DNA of 13,554 nt from a virus (lineage: Duplodnaviria > Heunggongvirae > Uroviricota > Caudoviricetes), in the IMG/VR virus record IMGVR_UViG_3300025858_001097; one strand, given 5' to 3'. Of the stretch, positions 3,051 through 12,732 are shown one piece after another. Under the pieces are notes generated by a model that worked only from the letters and a program-made list of their open reading frames with translations, did not search any database and was not told where the DNA came from. Each line of letters opens with the position of its first letter. Position 1 is the stretch's first letter. The position numbers and the translations under genes were made by a program.

Positions 3051-3269
3051 TTATTTATAAATATATTCTATTTTTGAAATAAATATTTTTTTCCACCAAG
3101 GCAAATTATACCATTCCACAACCCTACTTTGTTGTAATATTATTCTATCTGTTATTCTATCCAGTTCGGGCCATTGGCCTCTCACGCTTTCAAGATAAGC
3201 TAATCCGTATAATGGTTCATTTTCCCAAATTTCTTCACCGTATGGATCTATTTCAGAATATTTGTTCAT
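3051..3269 (-). CDS. Hypothetical protein, 72 aa
   Basis: ATG 4 nt after the upstream TAA; N-terminal EIDPYGEEIWE and C-terminal LPWWKKIF. Confidence 0.7.
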   Translation of the reverse strand: MNKYSEIDPYGEEIWENEPLYGLAYLESVRGQWPELDRITDRIILQQSRVVEWYNLPWWKKIFISKIEYIYK

Positions 3270-3273
3270 TTTT

Positions 3274-3366
3274 TTACATTAAGAAATTATACACCACTGT
3301 TTCAACAGCAATAATAATCGCCGTAGTCATAAGAGCTGTTACTACAATAATATCCAATCTTTTCAT
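3274..3366 (-). CDS. 30-aa single-pass membrane peptide (not in ORF track)
   Basis: MKRLDIIVVTALMTTAIIIAVETVVYNFLM*; A-rich leader, first ORF after the 3445-3413 promoter, 4-nt gap to the next ORF. Confidence 0.6.
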   Translation of the reverse strand: MKRLDIIVVTALMTTAIIIAVETVVYNFLM

Positions 3367-3412
3367 TTTATATTTTTTTTTATTTGATTTTAGTTTAAAC
3401 TCTTTTGCCAAC

Positions 3413-3445
3413 TGCGAATATAAAAATAAAATTCCAAATAACAAA
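3413..3445 (-). promoter_or_regulatory. Bacteroidota-type sigma-A promoter TTTG-N19-TATATTCGCA
   Basis: TTTG at 3445-3442, 19-nt spacer, TATATTCG at 3422-3415 (one mismatch to TAnnTTTG); heads the minus-strand small-ORF run. Confidence 0.55.
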
Positions 3446-4264
3446 ATGATTACAAATAAAATTTATTATGGAGACTCAATGATATTGTCAAAAAATTTGC
3501 CAGACAATTACTTAGATTTAGTGATCACAAGTCCCCCATACTCTTCGATGAAAAGCTATGGTAAAAAAATAAATAATTTTTCTCCAAGAAACTACAACGA
3601 TTGGTTTTTGCCTCTAGCTAAAGAAATAAGTAGAAGTTTGAAACCCGCAGGGTCGTTCGTTCTAAATATAAACGATAAAGTTGTAAATGGCTTCAGGGAT
3701 TTATATGTATTCGAATTAGTCATTAGAATATGCCAGGAAACAGATCTCAGCCTATATGATAGATATATATGGCATAAAAAGAACGCTCGTCCAGGAAGTG
3801 GTGATAGACTTAATGACTGGATGGAATATATTTTTCATTTTTCCAAAACAACACAAATTAAAAATAGAGTAGATAGAGTCAGAGAGCCTTATGCTGAAAG
3901 CACTATAAAAAGATATAAATCTCCTGTTGCTTTTAATAAGAAAACTGATGATAATGGTATAACCAGCATTGGTGATAAAAAGATGGTTAAACAAAATCCA
4001 CTTGGTAAAAAACCATCTACTGTTATGAGATTTAATAATGCTGGTGTTTTAAAAGGCGGAACATCTGGAAAACATCCAGCTCCATTTCATCCAGATCTTC
4101 CAGAGTTTTTTATAAAATGGTTAACTGATGAAAATGATATAGTTCTAGATCCCTTCATGGGAAGTGGCACAACGGCAGAAGTTTGTAAGAAATTGAATCG
4201 TCAATATATTGGATTTGAATTAAATGAAAGTTATAAAGATCTTATAGAAGAAAGACTGTATTAA
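3446..4264 (+). CDS. Orphan beta-class amino-methyltransferase (N6_N4_Mtase family, probably m4C), 272 aa (start revised to ATG 3446)
   Basis: NKIYYGDS, LVITSPPY (motif IV) before VLDPFMGSGTT (motif I), HPAPF, YIGFELN; stop overlaps the convergent gene's stop in TTAA 4261-4264. Confidence 0.92.
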   Translation: MITNKIYYGDSMILSKNLPDNYLDLVITSPPYSSMKSYGKKINNFSPRNYNDWFLPLAKEISRSLKPAGSFVLNINDKVVNGFRDLYVFELVIRICQETDLSLYDRYIWHKKNARPGSGDRLNDWMEYIFHFSKTTQIKNRVDRVREPYAESTIKRYKSPVAFNKKTDDNGITSIGDKKMVKQNPLGKKPSTVMRFNNAGVLKGGTSGKHPAPFHPDLPEFFIKWLTDENDIVLDPFMGSGTTAEVCKKLNRQYIGFELNESYKDLIEERLY

Positions 4265-5925
4265 GAGTGTTTTTGAGTTCTTATAGAAGCGACAGATTGA
4301 ACATCATCGTTTTTTTCTCTTTTGATATCTTCTTCTTTTTGTTTTCTAATCCTTCTTAATTGTTTCACAGTGCGAAGTATCCACGGCGTTTCGGGATCAA
4401 CATAATTCACATCTTCTTCTATATCAGCCTCTTCCCACGCCAAATCTTTGGAAGAAGTTTCGTTTTTTTTTGAGTCACTGCTCTCAATCTGTTCTGGTTT
4501 AATTTCCTCTGTTATATTTTCTTCTATAATTGGTTCTTCTGGAGTTTCTTCAGTGTTGGGTTTCCTAATAAGAATATCTTGAATTTGTGGATCATCGACT
4601 GAAAATTCCAAATATGGAACCGCTTCAATTTCTTCATCTTTTTTGATACATATAATTTCACTTAGGTTGGCGTAATCTGGATTTAGTTCTTTTATCCCCA
4701 TTTCGTCGAATTGAATAAGAACTCTGTTTTTTTCTAAATCAGATTTTATTATTATTCCTTTACCGAAAGTATTATGATAAACTCTTAATCCTTCTATTAT
4801 GTTTGTTTTAATCAGTTCTACTTTTTCCTCTGTATAACCATCTGGACAATCTTTGAGTAAAGGTTCGTTTTTTTTTAAATCGATTTCTTCCGCTTGTTCT
4901 ATTTCTTCTTCTTGATCTTCCTCTTCTTTATATATTGGATGATATGTTGTGGTAGCCAAAAATTCTTTGACTGGCTCTTCTTTTATTGGCTCTTTAATTG
5001 ACTCTTCTTTAATTGGCTCTTTTTCTAGGACGGGCTCAATTTTTTCTATTTTATCTTCTTTTTTCTCTGTGTTTTTTTCTTTATCTTCTTTCTTTTCTTC
5101 TTCTTTCTCAAACGTAGTCAATCTATTTAAACCAATTAATAATCCTATTGATAATGGATCACAAACTAGAATGATCATCAAAGTGATCCAGTTGACAATT
5201 TTATCCATTGGAGCACCTGTTAAATCAGATATAAACTTATACGGTCCAATTTCTGTAGAAACATCGGAGTTCTTTAATTCCATTATTTTTATATCATAAT
5301 AAGCTATTGAATCATTTACAGATGATGTTTCTTTCATTTTACCTGTAATGTCTTCATTTAAAAATTTAATCTGTTCGTCTTGACTCGATATAGATGCTAA
5401 GTTTCTATCAGCAGCCGAAACTTGTCTTCTATTGTATAATGTATCCAATCTTCTTTCTTGGCCGCTTCTTAAATTTGTCAATTGTGTAATTCTATTATTA
5501 TCACTTTCTATCGCTTTATTTATTCTGTCTAATTGATCTACAAACAAAGCTTTGCGATTTTCCATAATTTTTATTTGAGAATCACGATATTCAACTTTAT
5601 TTGCGGTCTTTTGATAACTGCCCGTAAGATATCCATAAACACCTACGGATGTCAAAAACATAATAAACACTATACAAAAAGTAAAAAACCATTTAAACCA
5701 TCCTATACTTTTCCAAAATCTATATACATAAGAAACAACAACTATTTTAGCTACTTCCAAAACGCCAGCTAGTGCTGTTATTGTCCAGCCTGCAGCGTGA
5801 AAAAGACTTGATAGACCAAATATTGAATAGAAAGCTGCTATTCCTGATAGACCAAATACTACCACTGTGAGAGCTAAAACCCAAAACCAATTTTTATTTT
5901 TGAAATTATTTATATTAAAATGCAC
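4261..5925 (-). CDS. 4-TM coiled-coil membrane protein (DUF4407-like) with acidic tail and PcrA/UvrD C-terminal Tudor-like domain, 554 aa
   Basis: Three N-terminal hydrophobic helices (AAFYSIFGL, LEVAKIV, FLTSVGVYGYL), coiled coil, EIGPYKFI...ILVCDPLSIGLL fourth helix, then GLRVYHNTFGKGII...LIQFDEMGIKELNPDYANL; GTG start. Confidence 0.85.
   Translation of the reverse strand: MHFNINNFKNKNWFWVLALTVVVFGLSGIAAFYSIFGLSSLFHAAGWTITALAGVLEVAKIVVVSYVYRFWKSIGWFKWFFTFCIVFIMFLTSVGVYGYLTGSYQKTANKVEYRDSQIKIMENRKALFVDQLDRINKAIESDNNRITQLTNLRSGQERRLDTLYNRRQVSAADRNLASISSQDEQIKFLNEDITGKMKETSSVNDSIAYYDIKIMELKNSDVSTEIGPYKFISDLTGAPMDKIVNWITLMIILVCDPLSIGLLIGLNRLTTFEKEEEKKEDKEKNTEKKEDKIEKIEPVLEKEPIKEESIKEPIKEEPVKEFLATTTYHPIYKEEEDQEEEIEQAEEIDLKKNEPLLKDCPDGYTEEKVELIKTNIIEGLRVYHNTFGKGIIIKSDLEKNRVLIQFDEMGIKELNPDYANLSEIICIKKDEEIEAVPYLEFSVDDPQIQDILIRKPNTEETPEEPIIEENITEEIKPEQIESSDSKKNETSSKDLAWEEADIEEDVNYVDPETPWILRTVKQLRRIRKQKEEDIKREKNDDVQSVASIRTQKHS
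4963..5019 (-). repeat. In-frame degenerate 12-15-bp tandem repeat (EPIKE-ESIK-EPIKE-EPVKE)
   Basis: Plus-strand units ttctttgactggctc, ttcttttattggctc, tttaattgactc, ttctttaattggctc. Confidence 0.75.
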
Positions 5926-5977
5926 TCTAAAATTATTATTTTTTGAATATATATTAATTATAATAAATGATTTTTTG

Positions 5978-6002
5978 TAATTTATTGAGAATCATCACTT
6001 TC
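5978..6002. promoter_or_regulatory. Degenerate copy of the dyad TAA-N4-TTGA-N3-TCAA-N4-TTA
   Basis: TAA ttta TTGA gaa TCAt cact TTc, 12 of 14 dyad positions; overlaps the BFN stop codon. Confidence 0.3.
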
Positions 6003-6647
6003 CTTCTTTTTCTTTATAATTTCATCTCTAATTTCAGAAGCTTTTTCATATTCTTCTTCGTCGATGGCTTTCTGGAGAAGTTCGTTTAATTCCTTTAAAG
6101 TGAAACCGTGAAGTCTATCTTTATCAGCTACTACTTGTGTGCCTATTTGACCTCCCTTTTTTATATCATAATATTTTTTAACTATTTCATCTACTTTATC
6201 TAATACATTATCGTATATGTAAATTGGATAATTCATTCTAACTGATATGGCTAAAGCATCTGCTGTGCGAAGTTCTACTTTAAGTTTCTTTCCAACAAGA
6301 TGTGTGAATAATATATCGTTTTTAAAATCTGATATAAGAATCTCATTGAATTTCACATTTTTATCAGCAATAACTTTTTTTAAAACATCGTAAACTAAAG
6401 GAATTATTGGTAATACTTTTTCAACTTCAATAGCTATGGCTTGTGCTTCAAAATAATTAATTATCACAGGCACTTTCCTTTCTTTACCACCATCTTCACC
6501 CAAAATAACTATATAAAGAGTTTGATCTCCACTTTTTGTGTAGGATATACCAAGAATATCAAGCTTTATCTTTTTGTTTAGTTCGTTTTGATCTTTAATT
6601 AAAAGTTTTATTAATCTGTCTCTTATAGCCATAAGTATTTTTCTCAT
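5982..6647 (-). CDS. Bifunctional nuclease (DUF151/BFN) domain + C-terminal UvrB/UvrC (UVR) motif, 221 aa
   Basis: IKLDILGISY..S...YIVIL.E..G.ERKVPVII..FEAQAIAI, ELRTADALAISVR...PIY, and LKELNELLQKAIDEEEYEKASEIRDEI; GAGG upstream of the ATG. Confidence 0.85.
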   Translation of the reverse strand: MRKILMAIRDRLIKLLIKDQNELNKKIKLDILGISYTKSGDQTLYIVILGEDGGKERKVPVIINYFEAQAIAIEVEKVLPIIPLVYDVLKKVIADKNVKFNEILISDFKNDILFTHLVGKKLKVELRTADALAISVRMNYPIYIYDNVLDKVDEIVKKYYDIKKGGQIGTQVVADKDRLHGFTLKELNELLQKAIDEEEYEKASEIRDEIIKKKKESDDSQ

Positions 6648-6730
6648 CCCTCATTGTTTTTATATTTTAATAAACTTTTTGTTTTTATTTTTTAATATAT
6701 ATAAAAAAATAATAGACCCATATTCCTTTA

Positions 6731-9700
6731 ATGAAACCAATCGATATTATAACCAAGCAAATGCACACCATCAACGACGACAATCTTACTGTTTTGAGAG
6801 AAGCAAGGGATCTTTGGGGCGGAATGTTTGATTCGAAGAAGAAAGAGATTATCGCCAAAATGAAAAGTCTCGGAATTCAAGAGACTCATTTTATTGTAAA
6901 CAAGGATTATACTGTAGATACTACAAAAGATGTTATGATAATAACAAAGAAATTTGAAACTTGTCCTGTTGAGTTCAACGTGGCACATGGCAATTTTATA
7001 TGGCATTATGCCAGTCTAACAAGTATGAAGAATCTACCGAAAATAGTTAAAGGAAATTTTGTAATATCTAATAACAAAATTAAATCAATGCAAGATTCGC
7101 CAACAACAATAGTAGTAGGTCAATTCAATTGCACTGGAAACCCTTTAAAAAATTTAAAAGGAGGTCCTTTAAAAACTGGAGATTATATTGCTATGATGTG
7201 CGGATTAGAATCTTTGGAAGGATCTCCCGATGAAGTAAGTGGAAATTTCTTAGTTGGTAGTAATAATCTCACGTCACTCGAACACAGTCCAAACGTAGTT
7301 AAGGGTCTATATGATTGCAGCAACAACAAATTAAAAAGTTTGGATGGAATAACAGAAGGACTAAATAGAATAAAATCAGATGGTAATTTAGTAGATTTAA
7401 AATTAATTCCAAAATCAGAAAAGTCAGAAAAGAAAGAGGATAATCAACTCCATTTAGATTTTAATAAATGGAAAATTAAAGATAAAGTTGTTTATCATAA
7501 ACCTGGTAGTATATTTGACGAGATTAAAGGAATGATTAGAGATGTAGAAGATCCAACCGCAAAAACCCCTGAAACAAGATATCAAGTTTGGTTTAAGAAA
7601 AATGATAATCCATCGATTGAGAAAGATTTCTCAATTTTACATATAAAAGGAGAACATTTAAGAAAATGGGAAGAAGATTTTGAAATAAATGATCAAGTAA
7701 TTTATAGAAATTCTAAAAGTAAATATAATGGTTATAAAGGAGAGATAGTTACTATTGAAACTATGGGTGAAGAAAAATCTTATAAAGTTAAATTTGATTT
7801 CGAATATAATCCAGGTCTTGTAAATATTGTGAGTGATAAAAATAAAACAGCTGGAAACATAAGAGTAAAGGACATAAAAGGAGAAAATTTAGAGAAAATA
7901 AATTGGAAAGACAGCCCTTTTGCAGATATTATTGTAAGTGATGATGAAAAAATAAGAGTTGAAAAAGATCCTAAAAACAATTTTATTGTTGGTGAAAAAG
8001 CCTATTTTGCTGGAAGAACTGTTATATTGTTAAATCTAAAAACACCTTTAATATGGAATGTTGAATACGAATTTCCTTCAAAAGACGAAGATGAAATATT
8101 TGCAGTTCATTGTGATAATTTGACAAAAATTAAAAAACAAGACGAACCTGTTTGGAAAATTCTTGATCCAATTGTTTATCTTGATCCTAATGGACCTTAT
8201 GACAAATGTAAAGGTCTTATTAGTTATGTTAGTGGTAACGGTGGTGTTATAGATATTGATATATTAGATAAAAAAGGAAATCGAGTAGAATTAACAAATG
8301 TTGATCATAAAAAATTAGAAAAAGACATCACTCCTAAATCGGATAAGAAAAAGAAAAAATTTAAAGCAGGAGATAATATAATTTATTTATCGACGAGTGA
8401 AAATGATAAAAATAAAAGACTACATTTATGTAAAGGAAAAATATTTTGTTCTAATGTGGCTATTTCTCCTGATGGTAGAAAAGGAACTTATGATGTAAGA
8501 ATTATTGATAGAGATGGTAGAGAAGAAACTGTGTTTTGGGTAGGCCCCGAAAATCTTAAATCACAAGAAGATAAATTCGCTAAGGGCGATAAGATCATAT
8601 ATAATAAAAAAGATGACGAATATGACGGCAAAATAGGAACTGTCGTAGATGTAGATAAAGACAAATATATATTATCTTTAAATATAGATAAAGATCTTGT
8701 CACGATTTCAGCGGTAGATTCTGATAATTTGACTAAATATATAAAGCCATTTGAGGCTAGAGTGCATATAAACGATGAAGTAATTTATACAAGAGAAGAT
8801 AGTAAATATTTTGGATGCAACGGAATCGTTACATCATACGACGTTTCTGCTGATAAATTTTCAGTTGAAATAAAATCTAAAGACAATAGAGTTATTAAAA
8901 TTCAAACTAAAGATGAAAATCTTGAACTGATTCCTCCAAAAAAGGAATTTAAAAAGGGAGATAAAATAAGGTATATTAATAGTGAAAGCCCTCACGACGG
9001 TTTAATTGGTCAAGTGGAAGAAAAGAAAGCAAACGGTCAATATAGTATCAAATTGAAAAATTCTAGAGGTGATAAAATATATCTAACGACCAGCGCAGAT
9101 TTTCTTATTCTCCTAGAAGAATCTTCAGATGTTGAATCTGGAGAAATTAAATATGGAGATTATGTAAAATACACATTTCCAGGTAGTAAACATGACGGTA
9201 GAATAGGAATATTTCAAGGAACAAGAGAAAAAGATGGAGCGTGGATTGTTCAATTTGATGACGACATATCATATTTAAAACTTTATGTTGATCCTGGAAC
9301 TTTACATTTAACCAATGAAAGACCATCTAAAAAACCCATTGCGACTACAACACATACTCCACCGGCTACAACAACGAGAAAGAAAAAGAAAAAAGAAAAA
9401 CCAATACCAAGAAAGCCAGTTTTAGTTTATAATAGAAGAAATGTAGCCAAAAGAGCCTACAGACCTCCAACGACCGGAGCGACTGAAACAATAGAAGATC
9501 TAGAACCAATCGAATTCAGAATTGGAGACAAAATAAAAGTCACTAAAGAAGGAGAATATAAAGGACAAATAGGTGAAATAACGAGTACTTGGAAGGAGCA
9601 TGATGGAACTAAAAAATATTCCATTAGATTAAGTACGATGCCTTATTATAGATACGTCGTTGGTGGCTGTAGTGAAGATGAAATGGAGTTAGTTGATGGA

Positions 9701-10504
9701 GATGAAAATTCTAGTGAGTTAGAAGATGACGTAAAAGTTGGTGATAAAGTAATTATCAATAATTCTCAATTTGTCGTTAGTGGTTCGGAAGGAGTAATAG
9801 AAAGACTGCCTATTTCTACGGATATTCCATCGAACAGAAGATATGAAATATCTGTTAGTAATCTATCAATTTGGCTTACTAGAGATCAATTCAAAAAGAA
9901 AAAGGATGAAAAAGAAAAAATTGAATTTTCAAGAGGCGACAGTGTAAAAATTAAAAATACAGACATTAAAGGAAAAATATTAGGTAAATGGGTAGTAAAA
10001 GGAGTCACTAAATATTCCGTTAAAAAACCAAACGGATTGGTAGTATTTGGTGATAAACCAGGGCTTGTTGGAGGACTTAAAGCGGAAGAATTAGAAAAAA
10101 TTGATGATAGTGAGTTAGAAGATAAAAAAGAAAAAGAAGGTGAGTTTTTTCCAGGCGATAGAGTGAGAATAAAAGAAGATGGAAATGTTGGAACGATATT
10201 AGATAAATGGCCGTATAGTGGAAAGCTAAGATATTCTGTGAAAATGCCAGAAGGCGGACCAGTTATTTTCTCCACAAAATCAAGATCAGAATTATCACCG
10301 ACTGGTTTTTCTGCGGATGAATTAGAGAAATTACCGTACGATATAGAAGTTGGCGACATTTTCGTTAGTAAATCAAATAATAATATGAAATTACAAATTA
10401 TGGAAAAACACGACAACGATAGATATTTAGTAAAATATTTGAGTGATAATACTGAAAATGAAATAAGTGGAAGCACTATATACAAATGGTGGAGAAAAAA
10501 ATAA
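6731..10504 (+). CDS. 1257-aa modular protein: about 6 LRR-type 20-22-aa repeats + about 14 tandem SH3/KOW/Tudor-like beta-barrels
   Basis: LxSLxGxPxxVxGxFxxxxNx repeats (about 7016-7390); barrels starting F/W/I-x-x-G/N-D-x-V/I at WKIKD, FEIND, FIVGE, WKILD, FKAGD, FAKGD, VHIND, FKKGD, IKYGD, FRIGD, VKVGD, FSRGD, FFPGD, IEVGD. Confidence 0.9.
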   Translation: MKPIDIITKQMHTINDDNLTVLREARDLWGGMFDSKKKEIIAKMKSLGIQETHFIVNKDYTVDTTKDVMIITKKFETCPVEFNVAHGNFIWHYASLTSMKNLPKIVKGNFVISNNKIKSMQDSPTTIVVGQFNCTGNPLKNLKGGPLKTGDYIAMMCGLESLEGSPDEVSGNFLVGSNNLTSLEHSPNVVKGLYDCSNNKLKSLDGITEGLNRIKSDGNLVDLKLIPKSEKSEKKEDNQLHLDFNKWKIKDKVVYHKPGSIFDEIKGMIRDVEDPTAKTPETRYQVWFKKNDNPSIEKDFSILHIKGEHLRKWEEDFEINDQVIYRNSKSKYNGYKGEIVTIETMGEEKSYKVKFDFEYNPGLVNIVSDKNKTAGNIRVKDIKGENLEKINWKDSPFADIIVSDDEKIRVEKDPKNNFIVGEKAYFAGRTVILLNLKTPLIWNVEYEFPSKDEDEIFAVHCDNLTKIKKQDEPVWKILDPIVYLDPNGPYDKCKGLISYVSGNGGVIDIDILDKKGNRVELTNVDHKKLEKDITPKSDKKKKKFKAGDNIIYLSTSENDKNKRLHLCKGKIFCSNVAISPDGRKGTYDVRIIDRDGREETVFWVGPENLKSQEDKFAKGDKIIYNKKDDEYDGKIGTVVDVDKDKYILSLNIDKDLVTISAVDSDNLTKYIKPFEARVHINDEVIYTREDSKYFGCNGIVTSYDVSADKFSVEIKSKDNRVIKIQTKDENLELIPPKKEFKKGDKIRYINSESPHDGLIGQVEEKKANGQYSIKLKNSRGDKIYLTTSADFLILLEESSDVESGEIKYGDYVKYTFPGSKHDGRIGIFQGTREKDGAWIVQFDDDISYLKLYVDPGTLHLTNERPSKKPIATTTHTPPATTTRKKKKKEKPIPRKPVLVYNRRNVAKRAYRPPTTGATETIEDLEPIEFRIGDKIKVTKEGEYKGQIGEITSTWKEHDGTKKYSIRLSTMPYYRYVVGGCSEDEMELVDGDENSSELEDDVKVGDKVIINNSQFVVSGSEGVIERLPISTDIPSNRRYEISVSNLSIWLTRDQFKKKKDEKEKIEFSRGDSVKIKNTDIKGKILGKWVVKGVTKYSVKKPNGLVVFGDKPGLVGGLKAEELEKIDDSELEDKKEKEGEFFPGDRVRIKEDGNVGTILDKWPYSGKLRYSVKMPEGGPVIFSTKSRSELSPTGFSADELEKLPYDIEVGDIFVSKSNNNMKLQIMEKHDNDRYLVKYLSDNTENEISGSTIYKWWRKK

Positions 10505-10510
10505 TATAAT

Positions 10511-11425
10511 GTGATAACATTCGAAGAATTTCTTTTAGAATATAAAAAAGAAGATGTAGAATTATTAAATAAATTAGATGATTATTTCACTATTGGATTT
10601 GAAATAGAAATAGATTCAACCAAAGTAAAAGAATCATGGCCTTTATATCCATCAATAACAAATAGACTTTTATTTCAAAAATTCGAAAAAACTTTTCCAT
10701 CTCTTTATAAGAAATATAAAGATAGAATATCTCTACACTACGATGAGTCTGTGCCGAATGGAATAGAAATAGTAAATTCTACATTCGATAAAGAAACATA
10801 TCCACAAACCACTCCAAAACCATTTAATAGCTTAAAAGAAGGAATTGATTATATAAATACTTTTTTCGATGATTATGAAAATCAAAATTATTGGATATTT
10901 GATAATCACACTTCTATTCACATAAATATAGGAACTAAAAAATCTATGAAATGGAATGTGGTTAAAGGAATAATGATGTTATCCGATGAATTTGCTTTTA
11001 AAGGAATTGAGGATAGAAAAACATCAGGTTATTGTAAAAGTTTGAAAAACAAATTATCTATATTTTTAGAAAAATATTTTAAAAATCCTACACATTTTTG
11101 GAGAAAAGAAATTCTTTTGAATTCAAGCGAAACCAACATAGAAAAAATAGAAAGTGGAATAGTTAATATTCTTCTTCGTAGAGGATCTCTTATCAATAAA
11201 GGTTTGGATAGAACTTATGGCATAAATTTATCGAACATTTTAATGGAGGAAAATAAATATGTGGAATTTCGTCATGTTGGCGGACCTAACATTAACAGAG
11301 AAATGATAACAGATAAAATAAAATATTTTGCTTATGTTACATATTTGATGACAAGCGATTATAGACATAATGAATATGTAAGAAAGTTATTTAGTTTTAT
11401 AAATAAATGTAAAAATGGAAATTAA
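10511..11425 (+). CDS. Putative amidoligase (Amidoligase_2, COOH-NH2 ligase superfamily) with N-terminal T4-type capsid-targeting sequence, 304 aa
   Basis: FTIGFEIE, HYDESV..GIEIV, TSIHINIG, YCKS, RTYGIN, YVEFRH motifs in order; N-terminus MITFEEFLLE; GTG start 6 nt after the upstream stop. Confidence 0.85.
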   Translation: MITFEEFLLEYKKEDVELLNKLDDYFTIGFEIEIDSTKVKESWPLYPSITNRLLFQKFEKTFPSLYKKYKDRISLHYDESVPNGIEIVNSTFDKETYPQTTPKPFNSLKEGIDYINTFFDDYENQNYWIFDNHTSIHINIGTKKSMKWNVVKGIMMLSDEFAFKGIEDRKTSGYCKSLKNKLSIFLEKYFKNPTHFWRKEILLNSSETNIEKIESGIVNILLRRGSLINKGLDRTYGINLSNILMEENKYVEFRHVGGPNINREMITDKIKYFAYVTYLMTSDYRHNEYVRKLFSFINKCKNGN

Positions 11426-11437
11426 TATATAATTGAA

Positions 11438-12247
11438 ATGCCTAAAGAATTCAGAAATATTGACAAATTTTGTGAATGTTGCGGGAAACAATTAAAATTG
11501 AACAATTCTAGAGATATTCAACGAAAAAGATTTTGTAGTCGTGAATGTAACGGTTCTTCACAACTAAAAAGATTATGGAAGGATGAGAAATTTGCAACCA
11601 AAATAATATCATTATCATCTAAACCCAATCCAAGAAAAGCTAGTAAAAATTTCAAAATACCGGTTGTTAAATGTAATAATTGTGGAAAAGAAATAAGAAA
11701 AAGAATTGGTAAGAGTGGACTTGTTTATTGTAATAGAGGATGTTATGACATGTATAGAAAAAATAATATAGTTCCAAGAGAAGATAATAGGAAAAAAATG
11801 TTGCTTAAATGTGTAATATGTGATAAAGAATACGAAAAACATCCATCTACATCTAAAAACTCCAAATATTGTAGTGTTCAATGTCATAATATAGGAAATT
11901 ATTTAAATATGCCAAAAAAGGATACAAAAATTGAAAAAATAATAGATGACAATTTAAAAAAATTAAAAATTGAATATAAAAAACAAAAGCAGATATCTAA
12001 TAAAACTGTATCTGATTTCTTTATAGAACCAAACATACTAATATATGCCGATGGAGATTACTGGCATAATCTGATTAAAAACAAAGAGAAAGATATTATC
12101 ATCAACGATTATTTAAAAAATAATGGATACAAAGTTCTTAGATATACAGAGAATGATATCATCAATAATATAGAATTTGTTATGAATGATATAAAAAATA
12201 ATATTAAAATAAAATGCCAGCAGCCAGTCAGCAACAAAGAGGATTAA
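11438..12247 (+). CDS. Free-standing putative homing endonuclease: three Zn-finger modules + Vsr/DUF559-like PD-(D/E)xK nuclease, 269 aa
   Basis: CECC..FCSREC, CNNC..YCNRGC, CVIC..YCSVQC, then TKIEK..L....I.Y..Q...SDF....IYADGDYWH..KD....L...GYKVLRY.E.DI. Confidence 0.85.
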   Translation: MPKEFRNIDKFCECCGKQLKLNNSRDIQRKRFCSRECNGSSQLKRLWKDEKFATKIISLSSKPNPRKASKNFKIPVVKCNNCGKEIRKRIGKSGLVYCNRGCYDMYRKNNIVPREDNRKKMLLKCVICDKEYEKHPSTSKNSKYCSVQCHNIGNYLNMPKKDTKIEKIIDDNLKKLKIEYKKQKQISNKTVSDFFIEPNILIYADGDYWHNLIKNKEKDIIINDYLKNNGYKVLRYTENDIINNIEFVMNDIKNNIKIKCQQPVSNKED

Positions 12248-12732
12248 TATTCGGTAAAAGAAACCAATACGGATCCATAGAAAACACACCAAAAAAATGG
12301 AAATGGGTATGGGAAGAAGGATGGGAGAATAAAGGAAAACTCCCAAAATATAAAAAGAAGAAAAAGAAATTGAATGAAAGTAAAATCATTACTTTTACTC
12401 AAATGATAAACGAACTTTATTCTAAATTAAACGAAGGTTATTATGATGATATCAACGGATGGATTTCCACATCACAAAATAACTCTGGGTTTAAAGACAA
12501 CGATCAAGTGCAAACATCAGATGGTAAGTATAAAGGAACAGTTTACGATGTCATGGTTTCTCCAGATAAAAAGGATATTTGCGTAGTTGTCAAATGGACT
12601 AATGGAACAGTTACCAAATATGGTAGGATGGATAGAAATAAAGAACTTGGAAAAGATTGGGGTGATATAACTACAATAAAGAAATTGAATGAAAGTAAAA
12701 TTCTTACATTTAATGATATAATAGAAAGTTAA
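12214..12732 (+). CDS. 172-aa putative internal head protein: basic MPAAS-QQQR N-terminal peptide, SH3-like domain, two capsid-targeting/cleavage cassettes
   Basis: N-terminus resembles DUF3008-type MPAKSxxQQR starts; KLNESKIITFTQMINE and KLNESKILTFNDIIES flank FKDNDQVQTSDGKYKGTVYDV..VVVKW; followed by a terminator; overlaps the endonuclease gene by 34 nt. Confidence 0.8.
   Translation: MPAASQQQRGLIFGKRNQYGSIENTPKKWKWVWEEGWENKGKLPKYKKKKKKLNESKIITFTQMINELYSKLNEGYYDDINGWISTSQNNSGFKDNDQVQTSDGKYKGTVYDVMVSPDKKDICVVVKWTNGTVTKYGRMDRNKELGKDWGDITTIKKLNESKILTFNDIIES
12363..12701 (+). repeat. Perfect 24-bp direct repeat AAAGAAATTGAATGAAAGTAAAAT at 12363-12386 and 12678-12701
   Basis: Both copies read directly; 315-bp (105-codon) offset, same frame. 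Confidence 0.95.

Follow-up and report, generated by a model that had tools for sequence, protein, structure and literature searches.

The stretch of DNA considered here, referred to below as the window, is the 13,554-nucleotide sequence of IMG/VR virus record IMGVR_UViG_3300025858_001097 (Duplodnaviria; Heunggongvirae; Uroviricota; Caudoviricetes), and contains an uninterrupted open reading frame (ORF) at positions 6731..10504 on the plus strand that encodes a protein of 1257 amino acids (aa), of ~143 kDa and with an isoelectric point of 8.0. This protein (P0001), of which a public protein collection holds an identical copy (P0002), combines three kinds of part: a capped leucine-rich repeat (LRR) solenoid at the N terminus, KOW/Tudor-type SH3-like barrels strung together by short linkers, and a single invariant, disordered polybasic peptide. 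The parts are arranged along the gene as follows, with the confidence of AlphaFold2 models given as the predicted local distance difference test (pLDDT) score.

6731..6826, plus strand: N-terminal peptide, aa 1-32, predicted to be disordered or helical (pLDDT <50)
6827..7426, plus strand: helical cap and LRR solenoid, aa 33-232, from AlphaFold2 (pLDDT >90) and structure matches
7460..9316, plus strand: core barrel array, units U1-U9, aa 244-862, from hhalign, a unit hidden Markov model (HMM), AlphaFold2, Foldseek and exhaustive structure comparison (VIA)
9317..9376, plus strand: Thr/Pro-rich linker, aa 863-882, predicted disordered (pLDDT <50), from the alignment
9377..9466, plus strand: invariant polybasic motif, aa 883-912, from the family alignment and its net charge of +13
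9506..10330, plus strand: variable C-terminal barrels U10-U13, aa 926-1200, from hhalign, the unit HMM and AlphaFold2
10337..10501, plus strand: U14, aa 1203-1257, a doubtful degenerate barrel with four predicted strands and no sequence likeness

Within the N-terminal peptide, 22 aa are inserted in comparison with the closest homolog in the alignment. No catalytic domain was found in the protein in Pfam or PHROGs; no Pfam or PHROG family exceeded the cut-off, all PHROG matches being to groups of unknown function (best E-value 4.8e-4), and no structural (virion) family of either collection was matched. The ESM Atlas scores of the protein do not exceed 0.85 and serve as leads only. Neither a homolog bearing a name nor a PDB relative with the same architecture was found; VIA and Foldseek listed no solved chain with the full LRR-plus-barrel layout apart from a weak match to InlB, and a search of the literature found the family described nowhere. 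The folds of the protein are known, and no precedent was found for their combination. An initial annotation of the gene had recognized no characterized protein with this architecture, and the Pfam, PHROG, named-homolog, and PDB searches agree. Of the two outcomes that the annotation had set against its own proposal—repeats not folding as SH3-like barrels, and a match to a known structural family such as a tail fibre—neither was observed.

The barrel array

The core units U1-U9, which start at aa 244, 314, 414, 472, 541, 613, 675, 737, and 803, are 55-79 aa long and are separated by linkers of at most ~7 residues from U3 to U9; U10-U14 start at aa 926, 998, 1063, 1136, and 1203. Each barrel was cut from a 19-member family alignment, and the resulting profiles were compared all-against-all by hhalign, with most pairs among U1-U10 being related at 90-99% probability and U11-U13 being tied in via U10 and U12. 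A unit HMM built from 80 barrel units recovered 13 units in the protein, with independent E-values of 3e-17 to 4e-7. U14 showed no detectable similarity to the other units by hhalign, received an E-value of 5.3 from the unit HMM, and was modeled by AlphaFold2 as a four-strand remnant with a pLDDT of ~60-83. The initial annotation had placed about 14 barrels in two blocks (7469-9325 and 9515-10501), and both blocks agree in position with the unit starts given above; the last barrel of the second block is the doubtful U14, and a count of 13 sure barrels plus one doubtful barrel is more exact than 14.

With the exception of U14, AlphaFold2 predicted five strands per unit, with a 3-10 turn ahead of the last strand, and pLDDT values of 80-90 were obtained for U1-U10; U11 was poorly predicted. 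The top Foldseek match of the array was to the multi-KOW arrays of Spt5 (E-value 3.7e-14), followed by matches to the Mind bomb REP region, a fourfold Agenet array, UBE2O, and kin17, and the triple Tudor domain of SETDB1 and InlB were also listed. For individual units, U8 was found to superimpose on the Aquifex NusG KOW domain with a Z-score of 9.2 (1.2 Å over 54 residues, 26% identity) and U7 on the Thermotoga NusG KOW domain with a Z-score of 8.9, while U5 and U6 together matched the tandem Tudor domains of 53BP1 and SGF29 (Z-scores of 8.1-8.2, root-mean-square deviation (rmsd) of 3.6-4.0 Å over ~107-116 residues). At the sequence level, the unit profile matched PsaE (6e-6) and L21e (1.7e-5), with uL24, NusG, and Spt5 at ~1e-3; near-threshold Pfam matches in the homologs were to DUF1918, KOW, SH3_13, NdhS, and Tudor_5, the last of these being sub-threshold. 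The Pfam KOW model found no match in P0001 and matched one homolog at an E-value of 3.7e-5, with KOW4 and KOW6_SPT5 at ~3e-3 to 5e-3, and the KOW signature GD.V.Y...(Y/F/H).G..G.I is visible in the units. Because profile-profile comparison, the unit HMM, AlphaFold2, and the structure searches concur, the units are taken to be homologous barrels with a predicted SH3-like fold of the KOW/Tudor type. The SH3/KOW/Tudor-like fold proposed in the initial annotation is thus supported by the Spt5, NusG KOW, tandem Tudor, and unit-profile matches.

The barrels are neutral to acidic. No tandem repeat was detected at the DNA level within the barrel gene, and the duplications giving rise to the array are therefore ancient, as had been suspected from the divergence of the units. 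The subtypes described earlier are likewise visible, namely Y..S.(Y/H)DG..G in U6-U9 and GKIL.KW and YSVK.P.G in U12-U13. Three ORFs of the window that appeared barrel-like by eye (4261-5925, 12214-12732, and 1072-1365) were rejected as members of the unit family, there being no significant match to the unit HMM. Two of these, at 4261-5925 (minus strand) and 12214-12732 (plus strand), contain one barrel-like stretch each, with sub-threshold matches to PcrA_UvrD_tudor (E-value 0.003) and PRC (E-value 0.003).

The LRR head

The head comprises six clear LRR repeats of 21-22 aa each (aa 84-211), of the form G.F.c..N.L.SL.G.P..V, preceded by the cap and one weaker repeat. The AlphaFold2 model of the cap and solenoid (aa 33-232) has a pLDDT above 90, and residues N88, N115, N137, N178, N199, L142, L159, and L162 are invariant among the homologs. 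The best structural matches in the exhaustive VIA comparison are internalin LRR domains, led by InlC2 (4fho; Z-score 15.0, rmsd 3.4 Å over 185 residues) and followed by InlA (Z-score 14.6) and the substrate-binding LRR domains of SspH1 and IpaH (Z-score 13.9); standalone bacterial LRR proteins in AlphaFold-DB clusters also match the head, at no more than 33% identity. Curated LRR sequence models found no match in P0001, with LRR_4 reaching E-values of only 0.0025-0.5 in three homologs. Since these models stay below threshold, the head is a divergent LRR variant. The six LRR-like repeats of 20-22 aa read earlier from the sequence are borne out by the repeat pattern, the AlphaFold2 model, and the internalin matches.

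A standalone 211-aa relative of the head, ~37% identical to it, is encoded at 5887-6522 in the Vibrio phage VB_VaC_SRILMA (L004), among small early-type genes and beside a DnaB-like helicase. In total, tblastn located the LRR head at four places in this record, and the LRR module is therefore a multi-copy family in this unrelated 196-kb phage.

The polybasic motif

Between U9 and U10 lies the motif KKKKKK..P.KPVLVYNRRNVARKAY (aa 883-912), which is given in the parts list of the protein as KKKKKE..P.PRKPVLVYNRRNVAKRAY. It comes after a Thr-rich stretch and consists of KKKKKK, a few acidic or Pro residues, and then (R)KP-V-L-V-Y-N-R-R-N-V-A-R-K-A-Y. The segment is predicted by AlphaFold2 to be disordered and carries its net charge of +13 over 30 residues; with the barrels being neutral to acidic, the positive charge of the protein is concentrated in this peptide. 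Across 19 homologs with an overall identity of just 27-73%, residues K884-K886, P896, V899, N901, R902, and R903 do not vary. The motif has the highest mean identity to the homologs of all segments (66%), followed by the LRR head (52%), U8 (51%), U7 (50%), and U9 (48%), with the other core barrels at 37-40% and the C-terminal barrels at 18-29%. The region of aa 863-925 had been described initially as a linker; it does lie between the two barrel blocks, but holds the most conserved segment of the family.

The only look-alike of the motif in the PDB is the basic DNA-contacting arm ahead of the TOX HMG box (E-value 0.094), a resemblance that covers the first half of the motif and is a lead only. 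Two other explanations of the peptide were rejected. A shared targeting or packaging signal is contradicted by the 735-kb phage genome LR756501, in which the motif profile matches only the ortholog, and programmed slippage at the Lys run is contradicted by its codons, which are mixed AAA/AAG and contain no long homopolymer.

Family and distribution

By tblastn, the named sequences most closely related to the 1257-aa ORF belong to the uncultured huge phages LR756501 and LR756503, with the relative in the 735-kb genome being 45.8% identical over aa 22-940. Al-Shayeb et al. (2020, PMC7162821) place this genome in the Mahaphage clade and predict Bacteroidetes as the hosts of the largest members of the clade. 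A gene for a type IX secretion system (T9SS) sorting domain on a homologous contig agrees with such a host. A word-indexed search of 5.8 billion proteins yielded 19 unnamed relatives, including the identical P0002, of 792-1257 aa and on contigs of up to 735 kb, and when 1.84 billion cluster representatives were searched exhaustively with a profile, only 27 were matched at E <1e-30 and 179 at E <1e-3. The family is small, and its named relatives are found in huge uncultured phages only.

According to local HMMs, every full-length member contains the LRR head, barrels, and the basic motif. Classification of each barrel in the homologs with position-specific HMMs revealed an orthologous order in ~33 full-length relatives, namely LRR-U1-U2-(U3)-U4-U5-U6-U7-U8-U9-motif-(0 to 5 U10-like units). 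The LRR head, U8-U9, and the motif are universal in full-length members, U1 or U3 is frequently absent, U4-like units are multiplied in one member, and U5-U7 are missing from two short forms (P0051 and P0052; 710 and 563 aa). The number of detected barrels per member ranges from 4 to 13, P0001 being the longest member; in the 19-member alignment, the homologs contain 0-3 units after the motif versus four or five in P0001. Variation in repeat number among homologs, which had been proposed as a check, is thus considerable and occurs at orthologous positions. Overall, the protein has constant ends, formed by the LRR head on one side and by U8-U9 with the basic peptide on the other, and a middle of variable barrel number.

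More remote matches are to further proteins with barrels in tandem (12 units at most), which have neither the LRR head nor the motif and some of which match Pfam KOW; a Pfam scan of 17 of them gave nothing informative as a fusion partner. Among these are the metagenomic giants P0056-P0060 and P0065 (862-1330 aa), with 8-12 units in tandem. The Pfam models KOW and KOW4_SPT5 match five of these six proteins, the exception being P0058, and no LRR head or basic motif is present and no NGN domain listed in any of them.

Besides the ortholog, LR756501 has 16 sites that match the barrel HMM, spread in 1-3 copies over at least 13 ORFs (121-843 aa), for example L010:2095-3096(-), L010:7519-8745(+), L015:1987-2817(-), and L012:2452-4518(-). 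Ten of these ORFs were likewise scanned with Pfam; they and the 17 remote proteins gave only weak DnaJ zinc-finger matches and matches to KOW or SH3 models, with no informative partner domain. A single small barrel module has undergone a lineage-wide expansion among the orphan genes of the LR756501 lineage.

Genomic context

The window is AT-rich (25-33% GC) and phage-like. Besides the barrel protein, it codes for DNA methyltransferases of the N6/N4 type and of the Dam type (the latter as a fragment), a BFN nuclease carrying a UVR motif, an endonuclease of the DUF559/HNH type, a VWA protein, and a membrane coiled-coil protein. Synteny around the barrel gene is kept in all six loci examined: upstream lies the divergently transcribed BFN+UVR gene and, beyond it, the gene for a membrane coiled-coil protein of ~450-500 aa, and downstream, where the contig extends far enough, a Dam methyltransferase gene. 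Two further features flank the barrel gene directly.

6692..6701, plus strand: exact TTAATATATA box, promoter-like, 30 nt upstream of the ATG of the barrel gene
10511..11425, plus strand: 304-aa ORF downstream of the barrel gene, Amidoligase_2-like by ESM Atlas features

Other exact TTAATATATA boxes occur at 5948-5957 (minus strand) and 11422-11431 (plus strand), so that the boxes stand 7-30 nt upstream of three gene starts, those of the membrane coiled-coil protein, the barrel protein, and the endonuclease; the BFN gene has a copy with one mismatch at 6661-6670 (minus strand). Because it is found upstream of other kinds of gene in the window as well, the TTAATATATA box does not single out structural genes.

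The 304-aa ORF is probably co-transcribed with the barrel gene. Among its 100 nearest ESM Atlas clusters, 94 carry Amidoligase_2 (top score 0.95), and its conserved motifs follow the series G.E.E, E, H, E.R (YFTIGFEIE, GIEIV, TSIHINIG, and YVEFR); Pfam is silent for this ORF even at E ≤10, as is a PDB profile search. Of the five other loci, three (L001, L003, and L007) have an ORF of 285-303 aa after the barrel gene, overlapping it by 4-14 nt, that is taken to be a homolog of this neighbour; no amidoligase-like neighbour is present beside P0013 and P0019 (L005 and L006). The N terminus of the 304-aa ORF, in which M1 and E10 do not vary among 17 homologs, looks like a T4 capsid-targeting sequence.

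The DUF559/HNH-type endonuclease gene at 11438-12247 (plus strand) lies between the amidoligase-like ORF and a 172-aa ORF. Neither L001 nor L003 has an ORF of this Pfam family called at the corresponding position, and one comes directly after the barrel gene in L006; the endonuclease gene looks like a mobile, homing-type insertion. For the N6/N4 methyltransferase at 3212-4264 (plus strand), the listed ORF has 350 aa and begins with a hydrophobic extension of 70-80 aa, and its homologs on related contigs are 271-273 aa long. Because the homologs are shorter, translation of this protein probably starts at an internal Met around aa 79.

Proposed function and alternatives

With a probability of roughly 0.35, P0001 is proposed to be a non-enzymatic, elongated tether or adaptor with two constant ends and a variable barrel spacer, specific to Mahaphage-type huge phages of Bacteroidota. 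The LRR head would recognize a protein target, and the basic peptide together with the always-present U8-U9 would fix P0001 to a polyanion, with nucleic acid the most likely candidate. Between these ends, the barrels would form a semi-rigid spacer, the length of which could be adjusted by evolution, and a few barrels may contribute weak binding sites of their own. In support of a tether, U1, U3, or U5-U7 have disappeared from some members and the LRR head, U8-U9, and the motif are always kept; in addition, the syntenic neighbours in the six loci are DNA-related, encoding the BFN nuclease plus UVR and DNA methyltransferases. Several points weigh on the other side. Everything beyond the architecture is deduced from folds and conservation, and LRR and KOW/Tudor folds serve many unrelated functions. 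Moreover, individual barrel positions are 37-50% identical among orthologs, which is above the need of a pure spacer, and the short forms P0051 and P0052, which come from metagenome contigs, could be artefacts of assembly or gene calling.

Less probable, and best called unlikely, is a role in the virion, with P0001 being either an internal protein that is packaged and ejected with its basic peptide on the DNA, or an external decoration or fibre with its C-terminal barrels touching the host. The pairing of a conserved N-terminal part with C-terminal units that evolve fast and vary in copy number is reminiscent of receptor-binding proteins, and the combination of LRRs with SH3-like modules is that of the surface protein InlB; on the other hand, no structural PHROG or Pfam family is matched, the neighbourhood is not a structural module, and no trimerization element of the fibre type was seen. 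The TTAATATATA box ahead of the barrel gene, which would fit virion expression, also precedes the endonuclease and membrane-protein genes. In T4, capsid targeting uses an N-terminal peptide of ~10 aa that ends in (L/I)xE and is cut by a gp21-type protease. The sequence [LIV]NE, which is here taken to resemble the T4 capsid-targeting and cleavage sites, occurs within the first 10 residues of about half of 32 family members, and LR756501 contains two sub-threshold matches to Peptidase_S77, the T4-type prohead protease (24 bits versus a cut-off of 27). These matches lie at 73997-74341 (plus strand) and 11386-11787 (minus strand), one of them inside an 811-aa open frame. However, [LIV]NE is not universal: P0001 offers no more than LRE, at aa 22-24, and in several members the E is replaced by D, N, or K. 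In addition, the occurrence of the basic motif in no other protein of the 735-kb phage means that it is not a common packaging signal. The initial annotation had proposed a multivalent binding array, possibly titrating several host or defence proteins; in such a sponge, each diversified barrel would bind a different one. In its favour, the barrels are old and have diverged one by one, each position being conserved among orthologs, and both KOW/Tudor barrels and LRRs commonly serve to bind proteins. The recurrence of this barrel type in further ORFs of the 735-kb phage also points to a binding module of general use. Such a sponge is nevertheless quite improbable in view of the range of 4 to 13 barrels, the dispensability of U1, U3, and U5-U7 in some members, and the placement of the strongest constraint on the LRR head and basic peptide, not on the barrels.

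More improbable still is a NusG/Spt5-like factor, the barrels of which would dock on host RNA polymerase, ribosomal protein S10, Rho, or rRNA and redirect them to phage genes. The closest structural matches of U8 and U7 are to bacterial NusG KOW domains, the best match at the level of the array is Spt5, and the unit profile matches ribosomal L21e and uL24 as well as NusG in sequence; huge phages have, furthermore, been reported to carry many translation-related genes (PMC7162821). Against this, the KOW fold is generic, and neither an NGN domain nor any other NusG/Spt5 hallmark appears in the Pfam listings of any family member, with NGN being absent from Pfam results for P0001 and four homologs at E ≤1 and from a tally of 19 homologs at E ≤0.01. 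A more specific proposal, in which a poly-KOW adaptor would replace NusG/Spt5, with U7-U9 and the basic arm clamping RNA polymerase, the ribosome, or nascent nucleic acid and the LRR head recruiting a phage factor, is a long shot. The slightest chance is given to P0001 serving as a substrate or recruiting adaptor of the downstream amidoligase-like enzyme, with either the Lys run acting as an acceptor or the LRRs and barrels bringing in targets. This idea draws on the overlap of the presumed neighbour homolog with the barrel gene in L001, L003, and L007, on further homologs of the neighbour from contigs equal in length to those of P0003, P0011, and P0016, and on the Amidoligase_2-like features and conserved E, H, and R motifs of the neighbour, but the neighbour is missing beside P0013 and P0019 with the motif intact there, the amidoligase assignment is unconfirmed by Pfam and PDB sequence searches, and adjacency is weak evidence because the whole region is syntenic in related phages.

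Significance

The largest known phage genomes are those of Mahaphage-type phages, very few of whose proteins have been studied. The barrel family was found wherever a related contig was examined and ranks with the larger genes that such phages carry, and its sharply defined three-part architecture is open to experimental dissection. A two-ended tether, if true, would be a clear case of a length-adjustable KOW-barrel adaptor in a virus; if instead the protein replaced NusG/Spt5, the largest known phages would own a transcription-translation coupling device of adjustable length. In addition, the ligand of the barrels, once found, would annotate a set of megaphage orphan genes, including the 13 or more other ORFs in the 735-kb phage.

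Comparison with known systems

P0001 shares with Spt5 (DSIF) and NusG the tandem five-stranded KOW barrels and a unit signature, G-D-x-V-x-Y...aromatic-x-G-x-x-G-x-I, that fits the KOW motif. Unlike these proteins, it contains 13-14 barrels instead of 1-7, has no listed NGN domain, adds an LRR head and a polybasic peptide, and is encoded by a phage. With the tandem Tudor and Agenet readers 53BP1, SGF29, SETDB1, and AGDP3, it has in common the predicted packing of U5 and U6 as a tandem Tudor, and triple and quadruple arrays match as well; unlike them, it has no chromatin context, and the likeness is at the level of the fold only, being sub-threshold in sequence (Tudor_5).

In Mind bomb (MZM/REP), UBE2O, and IpaH/SspH, SH3-like barrels or LRRs recognize substrates beside a ligase, which recalls the putative amidoligase next to P0001, although P0001 itself has no E2 or E3 catalytic domain. 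Barrels of the same type in tandem, up to 12 units, also occur in Gp579 of Bacillus phage G, a "putative L21e" of Pseudomonas phage ventosus, and the P0056-P0060 and P0065 proteins, which are uncharacterized and have neither the LRR head nor the basic motif.

InlB of Listeria resembles P0001 in having an N-terminal cap, an LRR solenoid, and tandem SH3-like barrels, as well as a basic element that attaches to a polyanion, a role that is proposed for the peptide of P0001. The structural match to InlB (1m9s) is weak, with a Foldseek E-value of 9.5e-4 and an rmsd of >39 Å. P0001 differs further in having no apparent signal peptide, GW modules, inter-repeat domain, or B-repeat: when the protein was read by eye, no hydrophobic signal segment was seen, and the 55-79-aa units lacked the GW dipeptide pattern of the ~80-aa GW modules of InlB. 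Its barrels are of the KOW type and mostly acidic or neutral, and it is encoded by a phage of Gram-negative Bacteroidota. Overall, P0001, a member of neither family, is built like Spt5 in its KOW array and like InlB in its capped LRR solenoid followed by SH3-like modules and in its basic element.

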